This document shows, piece by piece, positions 6,707-60,295 of a stretch of 60,394 bases of DNA (its first letter is position 1; every line of letters begins with the position of its first letter). The translations under genes were made by a program, and so were the position numbers. The DNA comes from a virus (Duplodnaviria; Caudoviricetes): positions 1 to 60,394 of the IMG/VR virus record IMGVR_UViG_3300037478_000635; one strand, given 5' to 3'. The notes below the pieces were generated by a model. It saw nothing but the letters and a program-made list of their open reading frames with translations. It had not been told where the DNA came from and made no database searches.

Positions 6707-6866
6707 CTACGCCCACCCGCAGGTCGGCGATCGCGTCGTCGTCTACGGCGTGTCGTGCGTCGTCTTCCGTGTCCGCCCGTGGGCCGTCGATGTCGAGGCG
6801 ACCGACGGCTCGGGGCGCTGCTGGCGGGTCAGCGGATGTCCGCTCCGGGTGAAGGAGGCGAGCTGA
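6699..6866 (+). CDS. small SH3/KOW-like hypothetical protein
   Basis: GGAGGAG RBS; PQVGDRVVVYG all-beta pattern. Confidence 0.5.
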   Translation: MRDYAHPQVGDRVVVYGVSCVVFRVRPWAVDVEATDGSGRCWRVSGCPLRVKEAS

Positions 6867-7773: not shown

Positions 7774-8720
7774 GGGTCAAACTCGTCACGACGTGGGACA
7801 TGCCCTGCGGAATCAGTGAGCATTCCTACTATCTAGTCAAGGCAGTACAAGCCGCCGATCCTTCGATCATCCACGATCCCGTCACGGATCTGCACCCGCG
7901 TGCCGTCCTCAACGACCCAGCCTCCTTCGATCTGCTCGTCTTGAACTATCACGCTGGACTACTCAGTCAGTGGCAACCTCCGCACATTCAGGCGATGCAG
8001 CAGCGCGGAACCCCGGTGCTGTGCATCTTGCACGACACCGGCGTCCCCAACAGCGACCAGGCGAAGGCGATCGCCGCAGCCGCCGACGCCACCATCGTCC
8101 ACGAGCCGGCGTCCGACCTGCCGGGCACAATCTACTACTGGCGGATGGGCGTGCCGGGCCCTCAGCTGCCACGGGCGGAGGCGGTCGCGCCGATGCGCGT
8201 TGCAGCCGCCCGTCATCGCTGCCTCGGGACGATCGGCTTCCCGTTCCCGTGGAAGCACTACGATCAGCTCGCGCGGCTCACCGCCGAGCTCGGGTGGGCG
8301 CTGCTCCTGATCGCCCCCGGCGCCTCGGCCGCGCAGATCGCCGAGTGGCAGCACCTCAATCCGCTCACGGTCGTCCGCCCCGACTTTGTGCCCCGCGACG
8401 AAGCGATCGGGCTGCTCAGCGCCTGCGACGCGACCGCCTTCGCCTACATCTGCCACAACACGGGGCAGAGCGCGGCGATCCTCCAGGGCATCGCGGCGCG
8501 CCGGCCCGTCTTCGCCTTCCACACCTGCCGGCAGTTCCGCGCGCTCTTCCACGACTCGCTCGGACGGACCGCCATCACCTGGAGCGAGACCTTCGAGGAG
8601 CTGGGCGCGCAGCTGGCGCGCGGCGGCCCGTCGATGATCGTCTCGGCACTGGCTGAGCAGGAGAGCTGGACGGGCGTCGGGCGGCGGTACGCCGACCTCT
8701 ACCGGGGGCTGGCGCGATGA
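7770..8720 (+). CDS. GT-B glycosyltransferase (GT4-like)
   Basis: VTTW..PCGISEHSYYL, ILHD, GTIGFPFPWKHYD, LSACDA, SAAILQGIAARRPV, SWTGVGRRYADLY. Confidence 0.75.
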   Translation: MRVKLVTTWDMPCGISEHSYYLVKAVQAADPSIIHDPVTDLHPRAVLNDPASFDLLVLNYHAGLLSQWQPPHIQAMQQRGTPVLCILHDTGVPNSDQAKAIAAAADATIVHEPASDLPGTIYYWRMGVPGPQLPRAEAVAPMRVAAARHRCLGTIGFPFPWKHYDQLARLTAELGWALLLIAPGASAAQIAEWQHLNPLTVVRPDFVPRDEAIGLLSACDATAFAYICHNTGQSAAILQGIAARRPVFAFHTCRQFRALFHDSLGRTAITWSETFEELGAQLARGGPSMIVSALAEQESWTGVGRRYADLYRGLAR

Positions 8721-9466
8721 GGCCGGACGGGATCGCGCGCTGGGTCTTCCTCCATCATCGCGGCGCGAGCCTCTTCCTCCGTGAGTGGATTCGCCAGCAG
8801 GCTGAGGCGGCCGGCTGGACGGTGAGCCCGACGCTCGCGATGGCGACGCGGCCGCTGACCGCGAGAGAGATCCTGGAGTACAGCTGGAGCTACGATCTGG
8901 TGATCGACGGGCAGGCGCGTCCCGAGACACCGGCGCGCCTCACGCAACCCTGCCCGAGCTGGCGGGGCGTGCATGTCCCACGCGATCCGCGCGCGCTCCT
9001 TCGCTCGGCCTACTACTCGCACCGCCATAGCCATCCGCTCGCTCTCCTCCCGGAACTCGGCCCCCATCGCGTGAAACTGGCCGGGCTTCCACTGGCCGAG
9101 GGGCTGCTCGCCGACCTCGACTTCTACGTCACCAAGCAAGCGATCGAGGCGATCTGTACCTGGCCCTACAACCACCCGGCGGTGCTCGATCTGCCGTTCG
9201 AGCGGATCTTCGGCGCAGGGCCGCTGGCGGGGAGCCTGCTCCTCGCCGCGCTGAAGTGGCTGGGCCTGCCGACTGCGGCAACGCTCATCGTGCCCGAGGC
9301 GACCTGGGAGGCGGTCAGCGGGCGCCCACCGGGCGTTGAGGACATCCGCGCGCACTGCACGGGCCTCACCGCCGCCCTGCCGGCGCGTGTCGAGGCGGAA
9401 CTCCGTCGCCGCTGGGGACCGGATCTGCATCGCCTCGGGTACCTGCGCGACGAGGAGGGGCCGTGA
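8717..9466 (+). CDS. PAPS-dependent sulfotransferase-like protein
   Basis: 5'-PSB-like loop FLHHRGASLFL, 3'-PB motif HVPRDPRALLRSAYYS, LDLPFERI, LKWLGL; the C-terminal RKG lid looks degenerate. Confidence 0.65.
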   Translation: MRPDGIARWVFLHHRGASLFLREWIRQQAEAAGWTVSPTLAMATRPLTAREILEYSWSYDLVIDGQARPETPARLTQPCPSWRGVHVPRDPRALLRSAYYSHRHSHPLALLPELGPHRVKLAGLPLAEGLLADLDFYVTKQAIEAICTWPYNHPAVLDLPFERIFGAGPLAGSLLLAALKWLGLPTAATLIVPEATWEAVSGRPPGVEDIRAHCTGLTAALPARVEAELRRRWGPDLHRLGYLRDEEGP

Positions 9467-10089
9467 CGCTCCCGCTGAGCAAGACGCTCGACCCGGCTGA
9501 CTTCGATCAGCTCAGGGAGGAGCTGGCGATCGTCGATCGCTGCTTCACGGATGAGCGCGAGCAGCATCCGATGCGGCGCTGGGAGTACGCGCTGGCGCTG
9601 CGGGCCTACCACCAGTGGGGGCGACGGGCGCGTGTCCTCCTCGATGTCGGCGGCGGGGGGAGCCCCTTCTACATGATGGTGCCAGGCAAGGAGGTCACCA
9701 TCATCGATCCAGAGTACGGACTCTCGCTCGCGCAGTATCTGACGGAGCCCTACGAACGCCGCCTCGCCGACGCTGTCTTCTGCCTCTCGGTCCTCGAGCA
9801 CGTCGACGACCTCGACGAGTTCGTCTACCACCTGAGCTGCCTGGTGGCGCCAGGCGGGCTGCTGTTCCTGACGATGGACTACTGCGACAGCGCCGGCGCA
9901 GCGCCGGTCGACACGTACCACTTCCATTGGATGCGGCGGCGGATCTTCAACTTTCCGTCCTTGATACCGCTGGCGGATAGCTTCCTCTATCGGGACTGCT
10001 TGTGCTTCGGCGACCACGACTTCACTGCGCACGGCCCCCAGGTCTACGACTACACATTTTGTTCTCTCGCCCTGCGGAAGCGCCTGTGA
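9463..10089 (+). CDS. class I SAM-dependent methyltransferase (small-molecule/sugar type)
   Basis: Motif I LLDVGGGGS, DAVFCLSVLEHV, LVAPGGLLFLT. Confidence 0.85.
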   Translation: MTLPLSKTLDPADFDQLREELAIVDRCFTDEREQHPMRRWEYALALRAYHQWGRRARVLLDVGGGGSPFYMMVPGKEVTIIDPEYGLSLAQYLTEPYERRLADAVFCLSVLEHVDDLDEFVYHLSCLVAPGGLLFLTMDYCDSAGAAPVDTYHFHWMRRRIFNFPSLIPLADSFLYRDCLCFGDHDFTAHGPQVYDYTFCSLALRKRL

Positions 10090-10283
10090 CCAACCGCGAC
10101 TTCCAGCAGGCGCGCGCCGACCAGCTCCAGCGGGTGCTCATCGCCCTGATTCGACGCGACGGGCCGATCACGCTCGCCCAGGGCGCCATCGCCGCGATCG
10201 GCGTCCCGGTGCCTGATCTGATGACGACGACCGATCCGGCCACCGGCGCGATCACGATCGCCGTCCGGGAGCCTGCGCGATGA
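10086..10283 (+). CDS. small hypothetical protein
   Basis: GTGA and ATGA coupling on both sides. Confidence 0.55.
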   Translation: MTNRDFQQARADQLQRVLIALIRRDGPITLAQGAIAAIGVPVPDLMTTTDPATGAITIAVREPAR

Positions 10284-10852
10284 CCCCCGTCACGATCGGG
10301 CTCGATCGCCCGCTGACGCGCGCCGCCGATCTCACCGACTATCCCGCCTGTCTCAGCGTGGCGCGCTGGCAGCAGCGGCTGGGGCAGGAGGCGTACGATC
10401 GCTGGGCGCCGGCGGCCCCGCACGCGCCGCCCGCCGTCTTCTGCTTCAACTGGGGCGCCGCGGCCTTCCGGGCGCCCGGGCGGGATCCGATCTACCGATC
10501 GCACGGCGATCCGCTCCCACGCGAGGCCGACGCGCTCGGGGCCGTCTACGCGCTCTCGGTCCTCGATCGCCTCGACGCGCCGGTGCGCTTCCTCCGGGCG
10601 TACGCGCGCCACCTCGTGCCCGGCGGCCTGCTCGTCTGCACCTTCGCCCTGTGGAATGCGACCGGCGAGGACTGCGCGCTGGGGCACGAGCTGCGCCGGC
10701 GCATCTACGATCAGCACACCTGGAAGCGCCTCGTCACCGACGCCAAGAGCCTGGGGTTCGCCCCCCTCGGCGGCGTCGACTTCCGCTACCACGGCGACCT
10801 GCTCGGCGACCACACGCTGGCCTCGCTGGTGGTGATCAGGGAGACACGATGA
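10280..10852 (+). CDS. methyltransferase paralog with degenerate SAM motif I
   Basis: AVYALSVLDRL, LVPGGLLVCTF, RRRIY, DFRYHG..DHTLASL align with 9463..10089, but there is no DxGxG. Confidence 0.7.
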   Translation: MTPVTIGLDRPLTRAADLTDYPACLSVARWQQRLGQEAYDRWAPAAPHAPPAVFCFNWGAAAFRAPGRDPIYRSHGDPLPREADALGAVYALSVLDRLDAPVRFLRAYARHLVPGGLLVCTFALWNATGEDCALGHELRRRIYDQHTWKRLVTDAKSLGFAPLGGVDFRYHGDLLGDHTLASLVVIRETR

Positions 10853-12087
10853 TCACGGAACGCCCCTGCCGGGCCTGCGGAGGCGCCCTCGAGTCGGTGC
10901 TCGATCTCGGCCCGCTGCGCCTCTCCGCCTTCCCGACCGCCGCCGACGCCGCCGTCGCCACGCCGTCGTCCGTCCCGCTCGATCTCTGTCAGTGCGGCGC
11001 CTGCCGGCTCGTGCAGCTGCGCCACACGGTCGATCCCGATCAGCTCTTCCGCCAGTACTGGTACCGCTCCGGGATCAACGAGACCATGCGCGCCGAGCTG
11101 GCTGATGTCGTCGCGGCCGGGATTCAGGCGGTCGGCGGCCTCCAGGCGGGAGACGTCGTGCTCGATGTGGGCGCCAACGACGGGACGCTGCTGGCCGAGT
11201 ACCGCCGGCAGGCGCCCGAGGTCCGGGTCCGCCGCATCGCCTACGAGCCGGCGGACAACCTGCGCGACGTCCTCACGGCGCACTGCGAGCAGCTCGTGCC
11301 GACCTACTACCCGGCGCAGGCGGCCCACTGGCGCGGCGACGTGCGGATCCTCACGTCGATCGCCTGCTTCTACGATCTCGACGACCCCCACGCCTTCATC
11401 GCCGCCGTCGCCGACACGCTCACCCACGACGGCGTCTGGATCGTGCAGTTCCAGGATCTCTGGCAGATGCTGCGCGCGACCGCCTTCGACAACCTTGTGC
11501 ACGAACACCTGGTCTACTACGCGCTCGCCAGCTTCGAGCGGCTGATCGAGGCGCACGGCCTGCGGGTGGTGTCGGCGAGCCGGCGCGCCATCAACGGCGG
11601 GAGCTACCGCCTGATCGTCCGGCGATCGGCCTACGACGCGACCGACGGCTCGGTCGTGGCGCTGCGGCTGCTCGAGCAGGGCTGCGAGCACTGGGAGACC
11701 CTGCACCGCTTCGCCTGGCGGGTGGGCGAGGCGCGGCGGGAGATCCGCGCGGCGCTCGGGGCGGCGTACCGGGCCGGCCAGGCGATCGATCTCTACGGGG
11801 CCTCGACCAAGGGGAACACGCTCTTGCAGTACTGCGGCATCGGGCCGGAGTGGATCCGTCAGGCGTGGGAGCGGTCGGAGGAGAAGGTCGGTCGCCAGAC
11901 GATCACCGGCATTCCGATCACGAGCGAGGACGCGGGGCGTGAGGCGCCGCCGGATCTGCTGCTCTGCGGGATCTGGCAGTTCCGCGATGCGGTGCTCGCG
12001 CGGGAAGCCGACTATCTACGGCAGGGCGGGCGGATGCTCTTCCCGCTGCCGGTCGTCGACCTGGTTGGAGACAGAGGAGAGGACTAG
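10849..12087 (+). CDS. NDP-hexose C-methyltransferase (Zn-binding N-terminus, Methyltransf_13/14 type)
   Basis: CRAC...CGACRLVQL, YWYRSG, VLDVGANDG, FDNLVHEHLVYY, NGGS, YGASTKGNTLLQYCG, GIPI. Confidence 0.9.
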   Translation: MITERPCRACGGALESVLDLGPLRLSAFPTAADAAVATPSSVPLDLCQCGACRLVQLRHTVDPDQLFRQYWYRSGINETMRAELADVVAAGIQAVGGLQAGDVVLDVGANDGTLLAEYRRQAPEVRVRRIAYEPADNLRDVLTAHCEQLVPTYYPAQAAHWRGDVRILTSIACFYDLDDPHAFIAAVADTLTHDGVWIVQFQDLWQMLRATAFDNLVHEHLVYYALASFERLIEAHGLRVVSASRRAINGGSYRLIVRRSAYDATDGSVVALRLLEQGCEHWETLHRFAWRVGEARREIRAALGAAYRAGQAIDLYGASTKGNTLLQYCGIGPEWIRQAWERSEEKVGRQTITGIPITSEDAGREAPPDLLLCGIWQFRDAVLAREADYLRQGGRMLFPLPVVDLVGDRGED

Positions 12088-12090
12088 CCG

Positions 12091-12288
12091 ATGTTCATCA
12101 CCGATCGCGCCCGCCCGCTGGAGTGCTGCCGGATCTGCGGCGGCCTCATCGTGGCCTGCCCGCCGGACGCGCCAACGGAGATCTACTGCACGGGCTGCTA
12201 CCGCAGCTACGACGAGCGCGCCGCCGCGCACGGAATCACGCTGGCGCCGTCGGCGGGCGGCGGGGTGGAAGGAGGCACGCGATGCTGA
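12091..12288 (+). CDS. small Zn-ribbon protein
   Basis: GGAGAGG RBS; CRIC...CTGC. Confidence 0.6.
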   Translation: MFITDRARPLECCRICGGLIVACPPDAPTEIYCTGCYRSYDERAAAHGITLAPSAGGGVEGGTRC

Positions 12289-12438
12289 TGATCGAGATTG
12301 GCGAGACCCTGGGGCTCGTGCTGCTGGTGGCGATCGCCGCCAGGCTGGTCGTCGCCTGGTGGAACTACGCGGGGAGGCGGCGGCTGTGACCAAACGTCAC
12401 GATCTCGCCGTCCTCCATTCCTCCGCAGGGAGCGCCTG

Positions 12439-12933
12439 ATGCCTGATCACTCCAAGCACGCCGCCCTCGGGGACAAGCCCGACTGGTGGACCTCCGACGA
12501 GTGGGAGACGCCCCCCACCTTCGTCGCGGCGCTCGAGGCCGAATTCGGTCCCTTCGATCTCGATCCCTGCGCGCGCCTTGAGACGGCGAAGGCAGCGTAC
12601 TACTACACGAAGGCGGACGATGGGCTGGCGCAGGCCTGGGCGCGGAGTGCCCGCGTGCATGTCTTCGTCAACCCGCCGTACAGCGATCCTGGTCCGTGGG
12701 TCGCGAAGGCGATCGAGGAGGCGAAGCGCGGCGCGGTGACGCGCCTCCTCTTACCGGCGGCAACCGACGTCGGCTGGTTCCACGAGCTGGTACTACCCTC
12801 GGCGAACGTGCGCTTCCTCCGGGGGCGACTGCGGTTCCACGGATGGGCGGGAACCCCAATCGGCTCGCCCACCGCCGGCAGCCTCCTCGTGTCGATCCCG
12901 CGTGTGGCGGGTGATCGGAGCTTTCAGCTATGA
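12439..12933 (+). CDS. phage DNA N6-adenine methyltransferase (short Dam family)
   Basis: DEWETPP, FDLDPCA, DDGLAQAW, catalytic VFVNPPYS, RFLRGRLRF. Confidence 0.9.
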   Translation: MPDHSKHAALGDKPDWWTSDEWETPPTFVAALEAEFGPFDLDPCARLETAKAAYYYTKADDGLAQAWARSARVHVFVNPPYSDPGPWVAKAIEEAKRGAVTRLLLPAATDVGWFHELVLPSANVRFLRGRLRFHGWAGTPIGSPTAGSLLVSIPRVAGDRSFQL

Positions 12934-13805
12934 GCCCTGCGTACACCTGGACCGTGATGCCCATCCTCGCCAACCGCGATCTCACCATGAGCGCGATCGC
13001 CTCCTGCCTCGCGCAGACCGTGCCGGTCCGCCTCCTCCTCATCAACCAGGGGGTCGAGGATCCCTTCCGCGACGAGCTGGAGCGGCTGGCGGAGGCGTAC
13101 CCCGAGCAGATCCTCCTCTGGAGCCATCAGCCGCCGCTGCCGAGCCTGGCGGCGACGTGGAACCGGGCGCTGCGGTTCGTGTGGGCGACGGGCGGCGACC
13201 GTGCGCTGGTCGTCAACAATGACGTGGAGCTGCACCGAGAGACAGTCTACGGGCTCACCTCCGTGTTCGGGCACACGCAGGCGCTCTTCGTCTCGGCGGT
13301 GGGGGTGACGGCGGAGCAGTTCAATCCAGCCGCCCCGCTGGATACAGCATGGTTCACCGCGCCAGATGCCGAGGGATGGTGGCATCCAGTGGCACCGGGC
13401 GGCCCCGACTTCTCCTGCTTCCTCATCAGCCGCGCCTGCCACGAGCGCTTCGCCTTCGACGAGGCGTTCACGCCCGCCTTTTGCGAGGATCTCGATATGC
13501 ACAGGCGCCTGATGCTCGCCGGCGAGGGCTGTCGGATCTTCTCGATCAATCTCCCCTTCCTCCATCACAGCTCACAGACACTCAAGTCGGTGGACGCCGG
13601 CAAGCGGGCGCGGCTCGAGCAGGGGATTGCGGCTGGGAGCCGGGCGTACTACGAGAAGAAGTGGGGTGGGCCGGTGAATCAGGAGATCTTCTGGCTCCCG
13701 TTCAATGAAGGAGAAGAGCGCGTCTTGCCGGACGGCGCCCCGTGGCCACCGACGACGCCCGCGCTCCAGGCGTGGGTGCAGGCGCAAGAGGCCGCCGATG
13801 GGTAA
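12930..13805 (+). CDS. GT-A glycosyltransferase (GT2)
   Basis: VMPIL, LLLINQG, SLAATWNRAL, VVNNDVE, FDEAF.PAFCEDLDM, HHSSQT. Confidence 0.85.
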   Translation: MSPAYTWTVMPILANRDLTMSAIASCLAQTVPVRLLLINQGVEDPFRDELERLAEAYPEQILLWSHQPPLPSLAATWNRALRFVWATGGDRALVVNNDVELHRETVYGLTSVFGHTQALFVSAVGVTAEQFNPAAPLDTAWFTAPDAEGWWHPVAPGGPDFSCFLISRACHERFAFDEAFTPAFCEDLDMHRRLMLAGEGCRIFSINLPFLHHSSQTLKSVDAGKRARLEQGIAAGSRAYYEKKWGGPVNQEIFWLPFNEGEERVLPDGAPWPPTTPALQAWVQAQEAADG

Positions 13806-14061
13806 GTCGCTCGACGATCTCCCCCTCGACGACTCTCCACTCGACGACGGCGCCTGGTCGGACTTCTGCGCGGAGATCGATCGCCTGATCATGAGCGACG
13901 ACTACGCCTGGGCGCTCGACACGCTCGAGGGGATCCGCGAGACGGTCAGCCGGTACCAGCACGTGACCGAGGGGCAGCGGCGGGCGATCGCGAACATCCG
14001 GGACGCGCGGAAGGGCGGCGAGAAGAAATGGGGACGGCGGTACGAAGGGTGGCGGCGCTGA
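13798..14061 (+). CDS. hypothetical protein
   Basis: GAGG RBS, coupled to both neighbours. Confidence 0.6.
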   Translation: MGKSLDDLPLDDSPLDDGAWSDFCAEIDRLIMSDDYAWALDTLEGIRETVSRYQHVTEGQRRAIANIRDARKGGEKKWGRRYEGWRR

Positions 14062-14363
14062 TGCCCGCCCGCGTGATCCACTGCCGTGAGGCTGCCCGGT
14101 ACAGCAATGACGAGTACGTCTACTGCGGGCGACCGAGCAAGTGGGGCAATCCCTTTGGGCCAGTCGGCGCTGGGATCCGTGTGCCAAGTCGCGCAGAAGC
14201 CATCCGACGGTACCGAGAGTGGTTCCTCGCCCCCGAGCAGGCCCAATTCCGCCGTGACGCGGTGCGTGAGTTGGCCGACAAGATACTCGGCTGCTGGTGC
14301 GCCCCGAAGCCCTGTCACGTCGACATCATCGCGGAGTTCGTCAACCGTGCCATTGCTCAGTAA
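14061..14363 (+). CDS. DUF4326 family protein
   Basis: VYCGRPSKWGNPF, REWF, LGCWCAPKPCHVDII. Confidence 0.8.
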   Translation: MPARVIHCREAARYSNDEYVYCGRPSKWGNPFGPVGAGIRVPSRAEAIRRYREWFLAPEQAQFRRDAVRELADKILGCWCAPKPCHVDIIAEFVNRAIAQ

Positions 14364-15150
14364 GCCCAACGCTGCCCCGTTCCGGTACTGGGGCGCCAAG
14401 GTACGGATGGCCCCCTGGATCATCGATCGCCTGCCGCCGCACACGCACTTCGTCGAGAGCTGCGCGGGATCTGCTGCCGTCCTTGCATTGAAGCCTCCAG
14501 TTGAGTACGAGACGGTGAACGACATCTATGAGGAGGTCGTAAACTTCTTCCGCGTCTTGCAAGATCCGCAACTCGCTGTGGCGTTGATCGATCGTGTAGC
14601 CTTCACCTCCTACGCCTATGCTGAGTTCCAGCGCGCAGCCGTCTCGACGCTAGATCCGCTCGATCGGGCTTGGGGCTTCTTCGTACGCATGCAGATGGCC
14701 GTCGTACCTGGACGAAGCGGCTGGTCCTACGGGGTAGCTGGACTAGCTGGGAAGAAGGCGAACAAGCCTGGCCGCTGGGCGACAATGCCCACGCACCTAC
14801 AGGCGGTCGCTACTCGCTTCGAGCGTGTGCAGATTACGGCATGGCCCATCGAGGAACTGCTAGCCAGGATCGACGCCCCAGGTGTCCTCCACTTCGTCGA
14901 TCCTCCGTACCTTTACGAGTCGCGCCCGTCTTCACACTCTACCTATGTCTGTGACGAGTTCGATCATCCGGCATTCGTCGCGGCTGTCGCACAGACAAAG
15001 CACGCGGAGATCTGGGTGTCGCACTATCAGCACCCTTTCTATGATCAAGGCCCGTGGGAGATCGTCGGTGATTTCGTGAGCCACCGGAACATCGCGAACG
15101 GTCGAACACGATCAGAAGCTGTCGAACGCCTCTATAGGTTCAGGCGCTGA
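14347..15150 (+). CDS. D12-class DNA adenine methyltransferase (Dam-like)
   Basis: PFRYWGAK, FVESCAGSAAV, ETVNDI, catalytic FVDPPY; GTG start at 14347. Confidence 0.88.
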   Translation: MPLLSKPNAAPFRYWGAKVRMAPWIIDRLPPHTHFVESCAGSAAVLALKPPVEYETVNDIYEEVVNFFRVLQDPQLAVALIDRVAFTSYAYAEFQRAAVSTLDPLDRAWGFFVRMQMAVVPGRSGWSYGVAGLAGKKANKPGRWATMPTHLQAVATRFERVQITAWPIEELLARIDAPGVLHFVDPPYLYESRPSSHSTYVCDEFDHPAFVAAVAQTKHAEIWVSHYQHPFYDQGPWEIVGDFVSHRNIANGRTRSEAVERLYRFRR

Positions 15151-18100
15151 TGCCCCTCCTCTCGAAGCCCCCCGGCTGCTCCGGCTGCGCGCTCGAGCAC
15201 CGCGGCTCCGGCTTCGCCCCCGCCGACGGCCCGCGCGGCGCCTGGCTGCTCCTGGTCGGGGAGGCCCTCGGCAAGGTCGAGGCGCTCACTGGCCGCCCGT
15301 TCATGGGCGATGCGGGCGGGATGCTCAGTCGCCTGCTGACCCTGCTCGGCTGGTCGCGCGACGCGATCCGCATCCACAACGCGATCTCCTGCCAGCCCCC
15401 CGGCGACTGGTTCGACGAGCGCGCCCCCTGGTACCACGCCGCGCTGGCCCACTGCCCATACCTGGCCCAGACCCTCGACGAAGGCCCCGAGGTCGTCGTC
15501 ACGATGGGCGGCACGGCGCTGCGCCGCGTGATGGGCTTCCAGCATCACAAGAAGATCCGGGTGCAGGACTTCCACGGCGCGATCCTGCGCGACCCGACCA
15601 ACCGCTTCTGGGTCGTGCCGACGTTCCATCCGTCGTTTCTGCAGCGGGGCGCGCACAACCTGATCGGCACGGTCCTCTGGGACCTGCACCAGGCGGAGGC
15701 GGCGCGCCACGGCAAGCCCGCCGACGCCGGGCAGCTCGTGATCGATCCGCCGGTCGAGTGGTTCGCCGCCTGGGTCGACCAGGTCGTCGCCGCGCGCACG
15801 CAGGATCCGGGCGCCTACCCCCTCACCTCCGACGTCGAGACGCCCGACAAGGCCGGCGGCAAGGACGAAGGCGAGATCACCGCCGAGGATCGGTCGTTCC
15901 AGATCCTCCGCCAGAACTTCGCCTGCCACCCCGACGAAGGCGTGACCGTGCCGCACGTCGAGCCCTACACGACGCACACCCGCCGGCTCTACGCCTCGCC
16001 AGGCGCCATCTGGCAATGGAATCGAGAATATGATCATGCGCGACTCGTCGCCGCCGGGCAGCTTCGCGAAGCCGACTCGCCGCGCGTCGTCGATCTGATG
16101 TGGCTCGCGCACTTCCTCCAGAGCGATCTCCCCCTCGGCCTCGGCTTCTGGGCGCCGTTCTACTCAGGACATGGTCCGTGGAAGCACCTCGCCGACAGCC
16201 AGCCGACGCGCTACGGCGCGATCGACGGCCTGCAGAACCACCGGATCGGCTTCGGGATCCTCACCGATTTGCAGAAGCTCGGCATCTACGCGCAGGCGCT
16301 GCGGCACACGCACCAGCTCCACACGACCTGCCTGCGGCCGGCGCAGCTGGTCGGGGTGAAGATCGACCGGCAGCGGCTCGTCGTCTTCAAGGGCGAGCTG
16401 GCGGACAAGGCGAGAGAGAAGCTGCAGGCGATCCAGGCGATCGTCCCCGAGGCGCTCCAGCCGCTGACGCCGAAGGGCGGGCTGACGAAGAAGCCGCTCG
16501 CGGGGACGCAGCACGCGAAAGCGAGTCGCCTCACCCGGACAGGGAAGCCGCGCAAGGGGAAGCCGACCGCGGAGATCAAGCAGGAGCTGTATGCCCAAGC
16601 ACAGATCGTCGAGAAGATCGTCCTCAAGGAAGTCCTCGTCTGCAGAACGTGCGGCATTGTGGACGTTCAGAGACGCCATCGTTGTGCTCCACCGCAGATG
16701 GCTGCGATCGGTCGGGTCGAAGCCAGACGAAGAGGACGCGATCAGCAGTTGGATCCTGGATCAGAGTCGCCTACCCCCCCGAACATTGAACTCGCCCCGG
16801 CCTCCGTCACGCGCTACTTCTGGCAGGAGCCCTTCAACCCCGACTCCCCGCCGCAGGTCCTCGCCTACATCAAAGCGCGCCGCCACACGCCCGGCCGCGC
16901 GAAGAAAACCGGCGCGGACTCGACCGACCGCGAAACGCTGAAGCGGCTGAGCAAGACGGGCGACCCGTTCTACGCCACCGTCCTCGACTACCGCGCCATC
17001 AACAAGGTGAAGGGGACCTATGTCGAGGGGACCGAGCGCCGGCTCGACGCCGAGGATCGGCTGCACCCCCAGCCGACCTTCCGGCCGTCGACGCAGCGTT
17101 TGAGCTACGTCAACCCGAACATCACGAATGTCGTCGCCGACAAGGACGAGCAGCGGAACCTCGCGGCCGGCTTCCGCCGGTGCGTCGTCGCCACGCCTGG
17201 CTGCCAGTTGATCGAGATCGACTTCAGTGCGATCGAGGCCAAGGAGACGGGCTGGTGCGCCCGCGATCCCTTCCTCATCCGTCTCGCCGGCCTCGGCATC
17301 CACTCGTACCTGATTGCGCTCCGGGTGAAGGACGCGCCGGACCTGTCGGCCGACGACGCGACGATCCGCGCGCACCTGAAGGCGATCAAGCAGCAGGCCG
17401 GCACGCTCCTCTACGACCAGGTCAAGCACACCGTCTACGGCGTCTTCTACGGCCAGACGCCGTACGGCCTGGCCGCAACCTGGCCCGATCTCTATCCGTC
17501 GGTGAAGCTCGCCGAAGAGCACGTCGACTTCATGTTCTCGGTCCTGCCCGCGGTGCGGACCTTCCAGCACGCGGTACTCGACACCGCCGCGCACGAGCAC
17601 CAGCTCGGCGGCGCCCAGCCCTACGCCTTCACCCCGGAGGGCGGCCCCTCGCCGCGGGTGCACGGCCACCCCTACCAGTACCGCCACTGGTTCTGGTCGA
17701 TCTACACCTATCGGCGCCTGAACGCCACGCAGTACTTCCGGGCGCAGGCCAAGGCGCAGCAGCAGGGGAAGGCGGCGCCGGTGGCCGAGATCCACGGGCA
17801 GTACTTCCGCATCGCGCACGGGCCAGACGCCAACCGCGCGATCGCCTTCTACCCGCAGTCGATTGCGTCCGGCGTCCTGAAGGAGGCGCTGCTGCGGCTG
17901 TTTGCCGCCCCCGACCATCCGCACTACCTCGGCGACGCCTACTTTGGCCAGACCCCGCTGCGCGCCCCGATTCACGACTCGCTGTTCCTCGAGGTGCCCT
18001 TCCGCCAGGTCGATCGGGTGCTCGAGACGGTCGCCGCCGAGATGCAGGCGCCGATCCTGCAGCAGCCCAACCTGCCGGAGTGGGGGATGGGCGCGCATCT

Positions 18101-18263
18101 GCAAATCGGCGTCGCGGCCAAGGTCGGGGCCGACTGGCAGGCGATGGAGGATCGGCCGGTGCGGTTCGGGGCGAGCCCGCTCGCGCAGGCGATCGAGCGG
18201 CTCGGTACGCCGGCCGAGGCGAGTGATGAAGAGGAGTGGGAGGAGCTGGGGCGGGTCGTATGA
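15150..18263 (+). CDS. polA: family A DNA polymerase with N-terminal UDG family 4 domain and 3'-5' exonuclease
   Basis: UDG: CSGC, VGEALG, GRPFMG, FHPSF. Exo I/II/III: SDVET, WNREYD, RYGAID. Pol: TQRLSYVNPN, motif A IDFSAIEA, motif B KHTVYGVFYG, motif C IHDSL. Confidence 0.93.
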   Translation: MPLLSKPPGCSGCALEHRGSGFAPADGPRGAWLLLVGEALGKVEALTGRPFMGDAGGMLSRLLTLLGWSRDAIRIHNAISCQPPGDWFDERAPWYHAALAHCPYLAQTLDEGPEVVVTMGGTALRRVMGFQHHKKIRVQDFHGAILRDPTNRFWVVPTFHPSFLQRGAHNLIGTVLWDLHQAEAARHGKPADAGQLVIDPPVEWFAAWVDQVVAARTQDPGAYPLTSDVETPDKAGGKDEGEITAEDRSFQILRQNFACHPDEGVTVPHVEPYTTHTRRLYASPGAIWQWNREYDHARLVAAGQLREADSPRVVDLMWLAHFLQSDLPLGLGFWAPFYSGHGPWKHLADSQPTRYGAIDGLQNHRIGFGILTDLQKLGIYAQALRHTHQLHTTCLRPAQLVGVKIDRQRLVVFKGELADKAREKLQAIQAIVPEALQPLTPKGGLTKKPLAGTQHAKASRLTRTGKPRKGKPTAEIKQELYAQAQIVEKIVLKEVLVCRTCGIVDVQRRHRCAPPQMAAIGRVEARRRGRDQQLDPGSESPTPPNIELAPASVTRYFWQEPFNPDSPPQVLAYIKARRHTPGRAKKTGADSTDRETLKRLSKTGDPFYATVLDYRAINKVKGTYVEGTERRLDAEDRLHPQPTFRPSTQRLSYVNPNITNVVADKDEQRNLAAGFRRCVVATPGCQLIEIDFSAIEAKETGWCARDPFLIRLAGLGIHSYLIALRVKDAPDLSADDATIRAHLKAIKQQAGTLLYDQVKHTVYGVFYGQTPYGLAATWPDLYPSVKLAEEHVDFMFSVLPAVRTFQHAVLDTAAHEHQLGGAQPYAFTPEGGPSPRVHGHPYQYRHWFWSIYTYRRLNATQYFRAQAKAQQQGKAAPVAEIHGQYFRIAHGPDANRAIAFYPQSIASGVLKEALLRLFAAPDHPHYLGDAYFGQTPLRAPIHDSLFLEVPFRQVDRVLETVAAEMQAPILQQPNLPEWGMGAHLQIGVAAKVGADWQAMEDRPVRFGASPLAQAIERLGTPAEASDEEEWEELGRVV

Positions 18264-53286: not shown

Positions 53287-53435
53287 GCCCGCCTCCGATC
53301 CAGGTGTGCCGCGCCCGCCGCCCAGAAGCGCGCGGCACCCACGCACACGATCACGATCGCGGCCGCCACGAGCACGTCAATCACGCTGGGCCTTCCCCCG
53401 CGCGCCCCCGTGCGCGTCGTGCAGCGTCGCGCGGT

Positions 53436-53633
53436 TCATTGCAGCCTCAGCACCGGGCCTCCAGACAGCAGGCCGAAGGCTTGGAGCAGCCACACCACCA
53501 CAAGGATCACCAGCACGACGTGAATCACCGCGACGATGGGCTGCGGGAGGCCGAACGCGGCCGCGATGACGCGCACGGCCAAGAACAACAGGCCGATGAG
53601 AATCAACGCGACGAGCAAACTGAGAATGGACAT
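53436..53633 (-). CDS. two-TM small membrane protein (Thivi_2564-like)
   Basis: AAGGAG RBS; two hydrophobic helices split by LPQP. Confidence 0.7.
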   Translation of the reverse strand: MSILSLLVALILIGLLFLAVRVIAAAFGLPQPIVAVIHVVLVILVVVWLLQAFGLLSGGPVLRLQ

Positions 53634-53647
53634 GTCAGCTCCTTGTG

Positions 53648-53977
53648 TCAGCGCAACCAGTTCACGACCCACAGCGCGATCGTCACGAGCAGGCTCACCG
53701 CCGCGCTGAGCACGACGAGTCGCCCGTCGAGATTCGCCTTCGCGCGCTGCAGCTCCTGGACGGTTTCGGCCACGGCCTTGAGCTCATCGCGCGTCGCCAT
53801 GCGATTGGCCTGATCCCGGAGCGCCTCGCGGAACTCATTCATCGAGTCGAGTCGCACGGACATGCCGCGCTCAGCTTTTCGCACCGCCTCCTCGGACGCC
53901 GCGAATCGCTGCTCGTAGCGCCGATCGGCTTCGCGCATCATCGCTTCGAGATGTTCCCGCAACGCCACTTCGGACAT
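53648..53977 (-). CDS. coiled-coil protein with C-terminal TM (lysis-region membrane protein)
   Basis: GGAGGG RBS; heptads then LVVLSAAVSLLVTIALWVV. Confidence 0.7.
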   Translation of the reverse strand: MSEVALREHLEAMMREADRRYEQRFAASEEAVRKAERGMSVRLDSMNEFREALRDQANRMATRDELKAVAETVQELQRAKANLDGRLVVLSAAVSLLVTIALWVVNWLR

Positions 53978-54056
53978 CGCCCCTCCGTCCTCACCTCGCG
54001 GAGTGTGACGAGGCCGGCCCGGCCGGACAAGCCCCCTTTGGTCGCCGAAGGCGCGC

Positions 54057-54269
54057 TTATCCGCGATCAGCGGGCGTGCGGTCGAGCAGGTCGTGGAGGT
54101 CGTGGCGCAGCTCGTCGCCGTGCGTGTCGATCGTGTGCGTCTGATCGACGAGCAGGCGCCCGAGGACGGTGAGCGCGCGGTGGATCTGCACGAGCGTGAT
54201 GGCGATCCAGACGAGCAGCCCGAGCAGCCCGAGGAGGCTGACGAGGAGGGCGAGGCCGAGCAGGAGCAT
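54057..54269 (-). CDS. small membrane protein, probably leaderless; first late-strand gene
   Basis: Long Leu-rich TM; no SD; TACCCT 8 nt upstream. Confidence 0.55.
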   Translation of the reverse strand: MLLLGLALLVSLLGLLGLLVWIAITLVQIHRALTVLGRLLVDQTHTIDTHGDELRHDLHDLLDRTPADRG

Positions 54270-54277
54270 CGCCGGGT

Positions 54278-54307
54278 AGGGTAGCGCCGCGGCGGGGCGA
54301 GCGGGAA
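54278..54307 (-). promoter_or_regulatory. putative late-strand promoter
   Basis: TTCCCG-18 nt-TACCCT with an A/T-rich UP-like tract upstream. Confidence 0.4.
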
Positions 54308-54560
54308 AAAATTTCGCGAAAAAGTTTGCTGAGTCAGGGCTCGCTCTGAGCCTCTCCCCCCGGGGGCACCCTCGCGGACAATGCATGAGGCGTACCGACT
54401 GTGCGTCTGCACGATGCGCGCCGGCCATTGTCCGCGCTCAGCTGCTAGCAGGTAGCGACGCGCATCGCGGCCAGGGCGCTCGCCTACGCCCCAGCAGCGC
54501 GCCACCCTCAGCCGACAGGAGACAGGTCGCGCAGCCCGGCCGGAGCTCGTCAGCGCGCAG

Positions 54561-54668
54561 CCTGAGCAGCCAGACGCCCGGCCCTCGCGTTCGCTCTCGA
54601 GAGCGCGCGCAGCCAGCCGCCTGAGCAGCCAGCAGCCAGCAGCCTGAGCAGCCAGCAGCCAGCAGCCC
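54561..54668. repeat. tandem short repeats: 23-bp unit CCTGAGCAGCCAGCAGCCAGCAG x2 built from AGCAGCC heptamers
   Basis: Exact copies at 54620-54642 and 54643-54665; partial copy at 54561-54573. Confidence 0.9.
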
Positions 54669-54697
54669 TTGACAGCCGCGCGCCGCTCAGCTACTAT
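54669..54697 (+). promoter_or_regulatory. sigma70-type early promoter
   Basis: TTGACA (54669-54674), 17-nt spacer, TACTAT (54692-54697), at the strand switch. Confidence 0.85.
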
Positions 54698-54719
54698 GGC
54701 ATCTTGACAGGTTGACAGC

Positions 54720-54857
54720 ATGACATACACCCTCACTCGATTGGCGATCGCAGCAGCAGCGGCGGCGATGGTGGCGCGTGGGCTCCACGCCGCCATCCTG
54801 CCTGCCTTCGCTGATGTCGCCGCGCGGCTCGATCGCATCGCGCGGGCGATCGAGTAG
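54720..54857 (+). CDS. 45-aa first early peptide (hydrophobic/amphipathic)
   Basis: ATG just downstream of the promoter; MTYTLTRLAIAAAAAAMVARGLHAAILPAFADVAARLDRIARAIE; below the ORF-track cutoff. Confidence 0.5.
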   Translation: MTYTLTRLAIAAAAAAMVARGLHAAILPAFADVAARLDRIARAIE

Positions 54858-54914
54858 GAGCTGAGGAACAGGGGGCGACGCAGCAGCAGCAGTAGGGGAA
54901 GAGGGGAGACCGAC

Positions 54915-55112
54915 ATGAAACACGCCTATCAAGCGGCCTGCGAGTGCGCACGCTGCAACCGGGAGCGAGTACGACGCGAGCGACAGGCGCGCACCGTACC
55001 CGAAGTCATGAACGACTGGACGCGCAGCTGGAACCGTCGTCGCGCGCGCGTCGCTCATGAGTACTGGGACGCCTACGAAAGTGGGCGGCCCATGAGCAGT
55101 GACGACTACTAG
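54915..55112 (+). CDS. small early protein
   Basis: GGGGAG RBS; H...CECARC. Confidence 0.65.
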   Translation: MKHAYQAACECARCNRERVRRERQARTVPEVMNDWTRSWNRRRARVAHEYWDAYESGRPMSSDDY

Positions 55113-55121
55113 GAGGGACCG

Positions 55122-55472
55122 ATGACTGTGAGATTCACCGACAACGCGAAGGGTTCGCCGGCCGGCAAGCTGGCGGATGCCGAACTCCACTTCGACGACG
55201 GGCCGCTCGACGGGCTGAAGCTGATCGGCTTCATGGTCTGGGCGCGCCGCACCGGCGGCCGGAGCGTCACCTTCCCGGCGCGGCAGTACTCCGTGAACGG
55301 CGAGCGGCGATCCTTCGCGCTCCTCCGGCCGATCGTCGACGCGGCCGGCCAGGACCGGATCCGGGATCTGATTCTCGCCGCCTACGCCGAGCACGAGGCA
55401 CAGCTGGCCGACGACCAAGATCCTCCCGCGCGCTGGGCGCACAGGTGCGAGCAGGCACGTAAGACGCGGTAG
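55122..55472 (+). CDS. SpoVG-like nucleic-acid-binding protein
   Basis: LADAELHF..LKLIGFMVW...SVTFPAR...LLRPI...IRDLILAAY matches the SpoVG fold pattern. Confidence 0.65.
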   Translation: MTVRFTDNAKGSPAGKLADAELHFDDGPLDGLKLIGFMVWARRTGGRSVTFPARQYSVNGERRSFALLRPIVDAAGQDRIRDLILAAYAEHEAQLADDQDPPARWAHRCEQARKTR

Positions 55473-55477
55473 CAGGA

Positions 55478-55552
55478 AACGCAGACGGCAGCGGGGCAGG
55501 GGAGACCCAGCCCTGCTGGAATGCGGCGCGCCCGGTCCGAAGCCCTGGGCAC
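55478..55552 (+). ncRNA. twister self-cleaving ribozyme, circularly permuted (type P5-like), copy 1
   Basis: P2' CGCA, L1 GACGG, P1 CAGC/GCTG capped by a GAGA hairpin, G^AA, P2 TGCG, GC, P4 closing loop GTCCGAAGCC; pseudoknots CCG:CGG and GC:GC; predicted cut 55519/55520. Confidence 0.85.
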
Positions 55553-55582
55553 CCTCGCATCGACCCTGGGAGGGGTCCTCCG

Positions 55583-56758
55583 ATGAACCTACACACCGCC
55601 GCGACCGAATACGCCAACCGCCCCGCAGACGAACGCTACGCCAGTCCCTCCGCCATGCTCGAGGCCGCCCAGCACGATCGGCAGCACTCGAGGGAGGTCA
55701 GCTACCAGACGCGGGATCTCACCGTCGTTCCGACCGTCGTCACGGCCGCCGGCGCGCCACTGCAGGCGCAGCCCGGGCAAGCGACCGCGATCGCGACGTC
55801 CCTCAGCCTGCAGAGTCCGCGCGGGCAAGCCAGCTTCACCCATTGGAGTTTCGGCCAGCTCGCCCGCATGGTGGGCGCGCCGGCCAGCTACCTTCGCGAG
55901 CTGCCGGCGGGCATCGCGGCCGAGGCGATCAACTACGGCCTACACGAATCGACGGAGCATGCGACCGATGCCAAGCTGCTCGTGAGAGCGAACGGCGAGC
56001 AGCCCGTGATTCGGGCGTGTACCTCCGAGACCTACGGCCGGGTCTGGGATGCCGACCTGTACGGCGCGGTCCTGCAGACGCTCGGCCAGGATGATTGGCA
56101 GACGCCGCCTACCTGGACCGGCGAGCCGGCCGGCGCCTACCGCGGCGATCGGGATAGTTTCCTGATCCTCGTCGACGGCGGAAGCATCGTCACTGATCCG
56201 AGTCTGCGCGCAACCGACGGGCCGAGCAGCCCGCTCGCGAGCGGCGGCGATCCGACAGGGCTCTATCGCGGCGTCATGCTGCGTAACAGCGAAGTCGGCG
56301 CCAGCAGCATCGCAATCGACCTGATCCTCTTCCGCTTCATTTGCGGCAATCACCTGATCTGGGGCGGCCAGTACCAGCAGCGGTTCCGCCGACGTCACAC
56401 CGGGGCCCATGCGGGCCGCGATGCGCTGCGCACGATCTACCAGGCGGCCCGGCAGTGGGCCCAGACACCCGCCAGCGCCGACGAGCGGATCATTCTCGAT
56501 CTGACATCGCGCGAGCTGGCGCACACCCGCGACGCCGTGATCGATGAGCTGCGCGCGCTCGGCGCGACGCGCGAGCAGGCCACGGCGGCCTACGACACCT
56601 GCGAGCAGACCGAGCGGGTCAGCCCGCGATCGTACTGGGGGGCCGCGCAAGGGCTCACGCGCATCAGTCAGGCGAGCGGGTACCAGGATCAGCGGTTCGA
56701 GCTCGACCAGGTCGCCGCGGCCGTGCTCGCGCGCGGCCGGAACCTGGTGACGGTGTAG
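55583..56758 (+). CDS. DUF932-like protein
   Basis: THWSFGQLA..GAPA.YL, IRACTSETYGR, LRNSEVGASSI, RFICGNHLI. Confidence 0.7.
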   Translation: MNLHTAATEYANRPADERYASPSAMLEAAQHDRQHSREVSYQTRDLTVVPTVVTAAGAPLQAQPGQATAIATSLSLQSPRGQASFTHWSFGQLARMVGAPASYLRELPAGIAAEAINYGLHESTEHATDAKLLVRANGEQPVIRACTSETYGRVWDADLYGAVLQTLGQDDWQTPPTWTGEPAGAYRGDRDSFLILVDGGSIVTDPSLRATDGPSSPLASGGDPTGLYRGVMLRNSEVGASSIAIDLILFRFICGNHLIWGGQYQQRFRRRHTGAHAGRDALRTIYQAARQWAQTPASADERIILDLTSRELAHTRDAVIDELRALGATREQATAAYDTCEQTERVSPRSYWGAAQGLTRISQASGYQDQRFELDQVAAAVLARGRNLVTV

Positions 56759-56760
56759 TC

Positions 56761-57006
56761 ATGCGGTATGGCCAACTCCCGGCGCCTCGCCCCGACGTCA
56801 GACGAAAGGACGGCTCGACGCTGCTCAGCCGGCAACCGTTTCTCTACTGCTCGGTCTGCGGAGGCCAGTACTCCTCCGATCCGTCCGACTACTTCATGGT
56901 CAACCCGGCGACCGAGATCCGGTGCTGCCGCCGGCTCATGCGGCTCGTAGACGAGCGTATCGAATACGTCGACGTGCCGATCACGGCGGCGACGCCTCCC
57001 GCCTGA
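56761..57006 (+). CDS. small Zn-ribbon protein
   Basis: CSVCG...YSS.PSDYF...CC. Confidence 0.6.
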   Translation: MRYGQLPAPRPDVRRKDGSTLLSRQPFLYCSVCGGQYSSDPSDYFMVNPATEIRCCRRLMRLVDERIEYVDVPITAATPPA

Positions 57007-57009
57007 GCG

Positions 57010-57086
57010 AACGCAGACGGCAGCCGGCTGAGCCCTCGCGGGGCAGCCGGCTGGAATGCGGCAGGGCCCGTCCGAAGCCGGGCCCC
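57010..57086 (+). ncRNA. twister self-cleaving ribozyme, circularly permuted (type P5-like), copy 2
   Basis: Same core as copy 1 with different but still paired P1 extension and P4 (GGGCCC/GGGCCC); predicted cut 57054/57055. Confidence 0.85.
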
Positions 57087-57107
57087 AGTCCCCAGGAGAG
57101 GACCAGC

Positions 57108-57497
57108 ATGACGACGCCGACGACGTACCCGCGTTTGCCTGACCCGCCGGCCCGCGGCCCCGAAGAGCCGATCGCCCACTATGGCGCGCGCCTCTTCACG
57201 TGGCTGCTCGCCTCGGACGTGACCGCGACCTGCAGCGATGTCGACCTGGAACGCGCGCTCACGGCGTCGACCGCGGCGATCGCTCAACCCGACCTGTCCC
57301 CGATCGCCCTGGCGCGGATCGTGGACATGCGGCGACGCCTGACCAGCGCCCTGGCGCATCGGCGCGGCGCGCCCGCAGGGCCTCCGGCGAGCGTAGCGCC
57401 CCCGCAGCGCGAGCTGTCCGGCGGACGGCCGGCCGCCCTCGTCCGGCCCCCGGCCTCGCAGCCGCCGGGCGGCGCACTGGCCGAGCTGGAGTTCTGA
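57108..57497 (+). CDS. hypothetical early protein
   Basis: AGGAGAGG RBS, ATG 57108. Confidence 0.65.
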   Translation: MTTPTTYPRLPDPPARGPEEPIAHYGARLFTWLLASDVTATCSDVDLERALTASTAAIAQPDLSPIALARIVDMRRRLTSALAHRRGAPAGPPASVAPPQRELSGGRPAALVRPPASQPPGGALAELEF

Positions 57498-59582: not shown

Positions 59583-59768
59583 ATGACCATGACGATCAAC
59601 GCTGAGGACGCCCGGACCCCACATGACCCGCGCTTGACCGCCTACGAAGCGGGTCGCTGGTATGCCATCCATGGACAGACGCTACCTGCGGGCGCGTCCC
59701 GCGACTGCCAGCGCGGCTATTGGGCAGAGATCCTGGCCAAGGGCACGCCGGACCATCCGGAGGGCTGA
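59583..59768 (+). CDS. small early protein
   Basis: GGGGAG RBS. Confidence 0.5.
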   Translation: MTMTINAEDARTPHDPRLTAYEAGRWYAIHGQTLPAGASRDCQRGYWAEILAKGTPDHPEG

Positions 59769-59770
59769 TC

Positions 59771-60295
59771 GTGCCCCACGAATCCACCGCCCCCGCCGGC
59801 ACCCGGTTCTTCGCTCGCCTCGATCGCTTCCACTGCGAGTGCCCGAGCTGCGCCTGCCTCATCGTCGCGGCGAAGGACCCGAACCAGACGCCCGCGCGGC
59901 TCCGGCGGATGGGCGCCCGTCTGACCACGTACAACCCGCTGACCTCGACCCTCTACTGCCCCCGCTGCCGGCGCAGCTTCGGCGTCGGGCTGCTGCTCTG
60001 GCCCATCCAGCGGGGCGGCCGGAAGCACCAGATCCCCGCCGACCACCAGCCCACCCGCCGGCAGCTGCGCGACCTGGCGCAGTACGCCTATGGCATCTGG
60101 GCCGACGAGGTGAAGAAGCAGGGGGACGCGCTCAACGTCGCGGTCGACCAGGCGTGCACCTGCCCGCAGGAGGAGGGCGGCTGGGCGCCCCGGTGCCCCG
60201 TCCACGGCTGGGAGCGGCATCTCGAGCGGCAGCGGGCCTTATGGGGAGATGAGGGGGGTGGAGGGGCTGGCGGGGAGGGGGAGGAGTCTGGTTAG
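59771..60295 (+). CDS. Cys-rich Zn-finger protein
   Basis: CPSC, CPRC, CTC...CPVHG. Confidence 0.65.
   Translation: MPHESTAPAGTRFFARLDRFHCECPSCACLIVAAKDPNQTPARLRRMGARLTTYNPLTSTLYCPRCRRSFGVGLLLWPIQRGGRKHQIPADHQPTRRQLRDLAQYAYGIWADEVKKQGDALNVAVDQACTCPQEEGGWAPRCPVHGWERHLERQRALWGDEGGGGAGGEGEESG

Follow-up and report, generated by a model that had tools for sequence, protein, structure and literature searches.

Twister-P5 ribozymes in the intercistronic gaps of a phage operon carrying a DUF932 gene

We analyzed the IMG/VR virus record IMGVR_UViG_3300037478_000635, a single linear record of 60,394 bases (CheckV completeness 87%; GC content ∼69%) that is taken here at its full length and called the window; the phage itself is uncultured. 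A rightward block of small genes begins near 55.1 kb, with G+C contents at third codon positions (GC3) of 0.80–0.89 in the called frames, and two copies of a type-P5 twister, a self-cleaving ribozyme, lie in its intercistronic gaps, both on the + strand (copy 1, 55478..55547; copy 2, 57010..57082). Copy 1 follows a gene for a 116-aa protein of no family (55122..55472, + strand; GC3 0.88). Between the two copies lie a DUF932 gene of 391 aa (55583..56758, + strand; GC3 0.86), preceded by the Shine–Dalgarno (SD) motif GGGAGGGG at 55568–55575, and a Cys-rich open reading frame (ORF) of 81 aa (CxxC...CC; 56761..57006, + strand), which starts 2 nt after the DUF932 stop codon and has a coding-like GC3 of 0.83. 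Beyond copy 2, the SD motif AGGAGAGG at 57094–57101 precedes a gene of 129 aa (57108..57497, + strand; GC3 0.88).

The predicted cuts, at 55519/55520 and 57054/57055, bound 1,535 nt that hold the GGGAGGGG motif, the DUF932 gene, and the 81-aa ORF. A reading of the DNA made from its letters alone (hereafter, the sequence-only reading) had placed both cuts and the 1,535-nt product at exactly these positions, and the N^AA cleavage sites of the family do fall there. It had also assigned to this RNA a ribosome-binding site (RBS), a DUF932-like gene, and a Zn-ribbon gene. The RBS, the DUF932 gene (PF06067, E = 7.7e-9, 36.1 bits against a cut-off of 23; phrog_1362, E = 2e-28), and a second ORF are present, but the Zn-ribbon was only a guess: the 81-aa ORF matched no family in Pfam, PHROGs, NCBIfam, or PADLOC and had no tblastn relative in the loci compared.

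Ribozyme Identity and Covariation

Both copies matched the Rfam family Twister-P5 (RF02684) on the + strand above its gathering score of 37.6 bits, at 55480–55547 (38.7 bits, E = 1.5e-4) and at 57012–57082 (47.8 bits, E = 6.9e-7). The whole 60,394-nt window gave no Rfam match beyond these two, either at the gathering threshold or at E ≤ 1. A search model for Twister-P5 that we built for this analysis, R1, also found the two twisters alone (copy 1, 49.4 bits; copy 2, 54.8 bits). The sequence-only reading had taken two copies with a shared core and with differing but still pairing helices for twisters and had proposed a covariance-model search as a check; the search upheld that assignment for both. 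The twister class was described by Roth et al. in 2014, according to a later review (excerpt of PMC6765202; the other PMC numbers below likewise refer to excerpts).

In the alignment to the covariance model (CM) and in the sequence, both copies have helices P1, P2, and P4 in the P5-open permutation, together with the pseudoknots T1 (CGG:CCG) and T2 (GC:GC), as had been proposed. The core segments CGCAGACGGCAGC, GCUGGAAUGCGGC, and GUCCGAAGCC are identical between the copies, and the core nucleotides (AA after the cut, GA before T1, and GU..AAGC in L4) are kept in both. P1 is 8 bp long in each copy, with one G-U in copy 1 and perfect pairing in copy 2; at its positions 5–8, the GGGG/CCCU of copy 1 corresponds to CGGC/GCCG in copy 2, a difference in sequence that keeps the pairing. 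P2 is CGCA/UGCG in both. In copy 2, P4 has 6 bp; in copy 1, it has 5 bp and a bulged U, and the middle pair of the CM there is C-U.

We collected 98 Twister-P5 matches, 88 of them distinct, from the window, from relatives of its DUF932 gene, and from a scan of IMG/VR with the core pattern. The 88 distinct sequences were aligned with MAFFT (alignment A1), and the fold was tested with both pseudoknots included. Paired cells came to 93.6%, compared with 68.6% in shuffles and 29–42% when the partners were slid, and double changes occurred at 17 of the 17 pairs. T1 was paired in 98.1% and T2 in 82.2% across the set, and all pairs covary. The variable T1 pair, which the search pattern had left free, was complementary in all 57 parsable sequences, both window copies included (G:C in 36, U:A in 13, C:G in 6, and A:U in 2); the remaining 31 of the 88, with other T1 or L4 variants, were not parsed by the regular expression. 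The C:G found in the window copies at the middle pair of T1 is a compensatory change from the G:C consensus. Both copies also agree with A1 at every column that is invariant or has at least 90% conservation. The window copies are genuine members of the twister family by all computational criteria: they share with type P5 the full core, helices P1, P2, and P4, both pseudoknots, the N^AA site, and a score above the cut-off. They depart from it at the T1 middle pair, at the nucleotide before the cut, and, in copy 1, at the bulged P4. A P5 stem formed from the flanks, or a general sequestration of the SD motif, was tried and dropped; for 86 ribozymes, the duplex between 25 nt of 5′ flank and 40 nt of 3′ flank came to −11.91 kcal/mol, compared with −11.57 ± 0.19 kcal/mol for permuted partners.

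Placement, Arrays, and Probable Processing of the Operon RNA

In the window, the Rfam matches start 7 nt (copy 1) and 5 nt (copy 2) after a stop codon, and the cuts lie 63 nt (copy 1) and 53 nt (copy 2) before the next start codon, with an SD motif ahead of each start. Across the 88 distinct ribozymes, a same-strand ORF ends beside 77, at a median gap of 1 nt and within ±5 nt in 67 of the 77. An ORF lies downstream of 80 of the 88, with an SD-like motif in 74 of these 80, and the cut-to-start distance has a median of 56 nt (interquartile range 50–72). When the window RNAs were folded, each predicted 5′ product finished in a P1 hairpin, with z = −4.2 and −1.9, and each leader opened with a P4 hairpin.

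Twisters also stand in arrays. Among 36 phage loci derived from the pattern scan, 20 carried 2–7 twisters, on one strand in every case, and the locus of one DUF932 relative (L011) carried five. Five complete phage genomes (46–57 kb) gave 6–9 matches each at E ≤ 0.001, 5–8 of them above the Rfam cut-off, in arrays that occupy a single strand and are confined to 4–6.5 kb. The densest array that we found lies on the chromosome of a metagenome-assembled genome (MAG) of Vicinamibacterales (L165, 1135–7796), where 16 same-strand Twister-P5 ribozymes occur in 8 kb and one ORF fills the segment in 11 of the 15 inter-ribozyme segments. One pair in the MAG array stands back to back, 62 nt apart and with no ORF between. 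Over 78 pairs of adjacent twisters, the median spacing was 552 nt; the 1,532 nt of the window falls in the upper tail, with at least 1,500 nt in 10 of the 78. The window pair represents the smallest version of a layout that is widespread in phages and that can set apart up to 16 cistrons, with a twister between each and the next.

We read these data as linear self-processing of the operon: intercistronic self-cleavage probably yields separate, insulated, linear mRNAs with hairpin-capped ends. Linear processing is favored because of family membership, stereotyped placement, one-strand arrays, predicted hairpin ends, gene association, and literature precedent. It builds on the identity, placement, and recurrence of the twisters, which the present analysis establishes, and supposes from the sequence that they cleave in vivo and that cleavage affects stability and translation. 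The two type-P5 twisters in the intercistronic gaps would be active, each cutting itself at G^AA during synthesis of the polycistronic RNA. The upstream message would then end a few dozen nucleotides past its stop codon, in a stable P1 hairpin with a 2′,3′-cyclic phosphate, and the downstream message would open with a 5′-OH, the P4 hairpin, and its own SD motif 25–35 nt after the ribozyme. In this way, the message of the DUF932 gene and the small ORF, and each of its neighbors, would become a linear mRNA of its own, with ends protected by hairpins and a standard leader independent of context. The operon with the twisters is most likely part of a module that is early or anti-restriction-like. 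RNase-independent processing had been a secondary alternative in the sequence-only reading; the population data, namely placement and arrays, now favor it, with cleavage in vivo still presumed.

If so, the twister units would be the natural counterpart of both RiboJ-type insulators and the RNase III sites of phage T7. RNase III sites between the early genes of T7 provide intercistronic cuts that turn a long phage transcript into hairpin-ended mRNAs; this processing needs the host enzyme and leaves 5′-phosphate and 3′-OH ends. Twister differs in being protein-free and in leaving 5′-OH and 2′,3′-cyclic phosphate ends. The T7 sites R1.1 and R0.5 are mentioned in PMC6993053, which also describes how in RiboJ a ribozyme and a hairpin upstream of the RBS insulate and stabilize transcripts (citing Lou 2012 and Clifton 2018). 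Like RiboJ-type insulators, the window twisters are self-cleaving ribozymes followed by a hairpin just before the RBS, an arrangement that would give a defined, context-independent 5′ end. RiboJ, however, is engineered, hammerhead-based, and placed after promoters, whereas the window has natural twisters between cistrons, directly after stop codons. If the insulator reading is true, phages had the RiboJ principle long before synthetic biology, and the short parts could be reused.

A natural precedent comes from prophages, where Perreault et al. (2011) described multiple hammerheads flanking single genes or short blocks, including a triple arrangement around ardA. They showed that the hammerheads cleave both in vitro and in E. 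coli and suggested that mRNAs of gene length arise by such processing (PMC3088659). There as in the window, several self-cleaving ribozymes of the same operon flank genes; operon processing was proposed, and circles were considered. The prophage hammerheads sit beside the anti-restriction gene ardA and the twisters studied here beside ArdC and DUF932. The two systems differ in ribozyme class and in that cleavage was shown there and is predicted here. A 2019 review recounts that twister was recognized as a ribozyme through neighboring genes common to hammerheads, leaves the reason for this sharing undetermined, suggests polycistronic processing, and calls the role of self-cleaving ribozymes in bacteria and phages “largely elusive” (PMC6765202). 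The window adds a clean example; the finding at this locus is ordinary in kind. Three regularities could make the question testable: the near-nucleotide placement between stop codon and RBS, the one-strand arrays within a single module, and the recurrence beside DUF932 and ArdC, which echoes the hammerhead–ardA link reported in 2011. The open literature that we searched does not spell out these three, which are possibly unreported so far but may be contained in Roth 2014, in Weinberg 2015, or in their supplements.

The same placement allows a different consequence of cleavage, which might lower or gate expression instead of insulating it, through entry into decay, uncoupling of the DUF932 block from upstream translation, or dependence on ribosome traffic. 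A ribozyme that starts at or next to a stop codon would have its P2 and T1 unfolded by a terminating ribosome, a logic that suits the median stop-to-ribozyme gap of a single nucleotide and the twisters of three DUF932 loci (L082, L094, and L104) in which the UAG stop codon and P2 overlap by one base, the last of the codon and the first of the helix; for the glmS ribozyme, moreover, cleavage can trigger decay (PMC6765202). We consider gating unlikely all the same. Stable hairpins cap both predicted new ends, the same arrangement raises expression in engineered RiboJ contexts (PMC6993053), and arrays flanking every cistron suit general processing better than gene-specific repression.

Several observations weigh against linear processing of this operon. 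Copy 1 is marginal, only 1.1 bits over the Rfam cut-off, because its P4 needs a bulged U. Both copies carry a G at −1 (window positions 55519 and 57054), which occurs in none of the 55 other parsable twisters (U in 39, C in 16), and the predicted activity could be reduced as a result. The ORF heuristics behind the placement statistics are crude in GC-rich DNA; for copy 1, the frame was mis-picked, giving a gap of 17 nt instead of 7. A search for sequencing runs carrying the locus returned none of RNA. Finally, when the loci of the best 80 of 564 IMG/VR relatives of the DUF932 protein were scanned with R1, 72 of the 80 had no same-strand twister, including all 18 of the closest relatives (41–56% identity), so that the twister is dispensable for DUF932 genes.

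Possible Circular Closure of the 1,535-nt RNA

Double cleavage could also have a more elaborate outcome, in which the freed 1,535-nt RNA would be closed by host RtcB or by the reverse reaction of the re-formed ribozyme, joining 57054 to 55520 into an exonuclease-resistant message for the DUF932 gene and the small ORF. The geometry fits, in that two same-strand ribozymes have predicted cuts that release one RNA, and the expected 5′-OH and 2′,3′-cyclic phosphate ends are the right chemistry for RtcB (PMC8782182, together with knowledge of the class). RtcB is frequent in cells (10 of 14 control genomes), and a host enzyme could act, but RtcB (PF01139) was found in none of the 11 twister-bearing phage records, 7 of which are at least 90% complete. 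Nor do the ends of the released RNA form a joining helix: their duplex energy of −61.3 compares with a null of −58.5 ± 9.8 and lies at the 41st percentile of 400 natural controls, and the family as a whole lacks flank pairing (−11.9 vs. −11.6 ± 0.2 kcal/mol).

The junction itself cuts both ways. Copy 2 would contribute its 5′ half and copy 1 its 3′ half; the two halves are compatible (P2, 4/4; T1, 3/3) and could dock, and the sequence-only reading was correct that the 57054–55520 junction would rebuild a chimeric twister. The rebuilt ribozyme would, however, be complete, with perfect P2 and T1, and it should re-cleave. Among the 27 adjacent array pairs with both members cleanly parsed (71 of the 98 twister matches parse), 14 would give a compatible chimera and 13 an incompatible one, against a between-genome background of ∼0.26, which argues that reconstitution of the junction is not a conserved or maintained property.

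Known circles and circle searches bear on the same point. Perreault et al. (2011) looked among the products of prophage genes flanked by hammerheads for spliced or circular RNAs and detected neither, with the data not shown there (PMC3088659). The engineered Tornado system does make circles with twister and RtcB and resembles the window in that an RNA between two twisters has RtcB-ligatable ends (PMC11263348). In the window RNA, by contrast, each end would keep half a ribozyme, there is no ligation stem, and the junction would self-cleave. In Tornado, most of each ribozyme is reportedly discarded, so that re-cleavage is avoided; its permutations are said to remove the ribozymes and leave the ligation stem. 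Retrozymes and viroid-like circular RNAs also use paired ribozymes to free a unit-length RNA, and ligation rebuilds the ribozyme (PMC5680766 and PMC7761336), but these are small, mostly non-coding, replicating or retrotransposing, and eukaryotic, whereas the window RNA would be a protein-coding segment of the operon of a dsDNA phage.

A circular mRNA is, on this balance, unlikely, an idea that the evidence weakly disfavors. For the 1,535-nt RNA, we judge closure highly improbable, and we give marginally less credence to its general form, in which the DUF932 and small-ORF segment and also each cistron of the larger arrays would become a covalently closed mRNA as the half-ribozymes dock by way of P2 and T1 and the ends are sealed, either by host RtcB or by the reverse reaction of the ribozyme. 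Were it true, anti-restriction-type genes of phages would have messages that resist exonucleases and stand in a cleavage–ligation equilibrium, and bacterial viruses would provide their first case of a natural circular mRNA made by ribozymes.

Gene Neighborhoods and the Wider Window

The sequence-only reading had suggested a survey of ribozyme pairs around DUF932 genes. In our 80 loci, a same-strand twister was present in 8, and in all 8, one starts 1–6 nt after the DUF932 stop codon; in 3 of these 8 (L082, L094, and L104), another twister lies upstream with its end 29 nt from the DUF932 start, so that the DUF932 gene alone is bracketed. The twisters directly after DUF932 in these three loci (L082, 1585–1636; L094, 3577–3626; L104, 3577–3628) are variants with P2 GUAG/CUAC and T2 CC:GG, and the other twisters of the same phages have P2 CGCG/CGCG. 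With R1, the variants score 24–29 bits, low enough that others like them may escape standard scans. The lone twister-type match among the 18 closest relatives lies on the opposite strand (L077). Rfam at E ≤ 1 on the first 16 DUF932 loci returned the twisters of L011 and L009, a sub-threshold Hammerhead_II in L014 (31.7 bits vs. 37), and nothing else, and at the gathering threshold, it found no ribozyme in 20 of the 72 twister-less loci, taken in list order. DUF932 relatives also occur in six cultured-phage records. Three of these six were scanned and gave no twister at E ≤ 0.01 (one match had 14.9 bits, E = 0.04); they gave no Hammerhead_II either, a weak blank because the control genomes gave no match.

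Two DUF932 loci showed other features. In Mesorhizobium phage Cp1R7A-A1 (L141, record 5041–16102), regular gaps of ∼150–250 nt separate the small genes around DUF932; a search limited to twister and Hammerhead_II found neither in these gaps. In a 107-kb viral contig (L100), a permuted transfer-messenger RNA (RF04321, 84.5 bits) lies at 1527–1777, ∼700 nt upstream of the DUF932 gene.

Taking the ribozymes as the starting point, the 23 longest twister-abutting ORFs comprise 8 DUF932 proteins, 1 more below the cut-off, 3 ArdC, 3 of other families, and 8 of no family; some of the phages behind these figures are related, and the counts are not independent. The open literature searched held no paper with both “twister ribozyme” and “DUF932” and no relevant paper joining twister with ArdC, though the gene lists of Roth 2014 and Weinberg 2015 may already include either family. 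The window DUF932 protein matched no PADLOC or NCBIfam family and had no relative by sequence in the Protein Data Bank (PDB), and its AlphaFold2 model (predicted local distance difference test score, pLDDT, 77) had no Foldseek match in the PDB at E ≤ 0.001.

Gene order near DUF932 varies among relatives, and a homologue of the 116-aa gene lies downstream of DUF932 in L006. Moreover, copies within one genome share quirks (in the window, G at −1 and C:G in T1; in L082, L094, and L104, the CGCG P2), which implies that they spread by duplication inside a lineage. Such data would suit a selfish repeat or module boundary: the ∼70-nt elements would spread as DNA or act as recombination joints that shuffle cassettes, with RNA cleavage incidental, an explanation that also covers the mobile cassette raised by the sequence-only reading. 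We regard it as quite improbable, given that all copies of every array lie on the coding strand and that compensatory changes accompany the divergence of the helices and the pseudoknots show covariation, which means that selection acts on the RNA fold. The four metagenome runs, two of them probably of the source sample, in addition yielded no ribozyme-bounded excised form among their DNA contigs. As for a mobile cassette, the order from DUF932 to the 129-aa gene is kept in five relatives that have no ribozymes (L003, L005, L006, L007, and L008), so that the ribozymes do not delimit a two-gene unit that moves; rather, twisters have entered a gene order that is itself conserved, or have disappeared from it.

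Homologues of the 116-aa gene that precedes copy 1 occur in L006 (74% identity) and L050 (69%), and in L050, too, a twister directly follows the gene. In each of the four metagenome runs, the summed contig depth at 55204–55337 within this gene exceeds that of the neighboring sequence several-fold, and variant letters are numerous; the stretch looks like a widely shared conserved segment. In the soil metagenome run X4, a 151-nt contig (depth 2.8) joins 55656 to 56701 with zero mismatches. The join amounts to a 1,044-nt deletion within the DUF932 gene with 6 nt of microhomology and could be a deletion variant or an assembly chimera.

At the far right of the window, two long ORFs overlap at 59662–60295; GC3 favors 59720–60295 (0.89) over 59662–60252 (0.57), and the family scans of this region used the frame that is now disfavored. 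Elsewhere, the window encodes the large terminase and the major head protein on its minus strand, and it also codes for a fusion of PolA with uracil-DNA glycosylase (UDG), a superfamily 1 (SF1) helicase, and an SLT lysozyme-like protein. The 1,037-aa ORF at 15150–18263 joins a family-A DNA polymerase domain to an N-terminal domain of the uracil-DNA-glycosylase superfamily. A stretch of ∼1.7 kb (53377–55112), which separates the leftward structural block from the small-gene block that runs rightward, shows no frame whose GC3 signal is clear and is possibly a divergent control region. It contains the sole sigma-70-like site of 53–60.4 kb, TTGACA-17-TACTAT at 54669..54697 on the + strand (10 of 12 matches in a consensus scan; 1 found vs. 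0.5 expected in shuffles), and this weakly evidenced promoter-like site could start the rightward operon.

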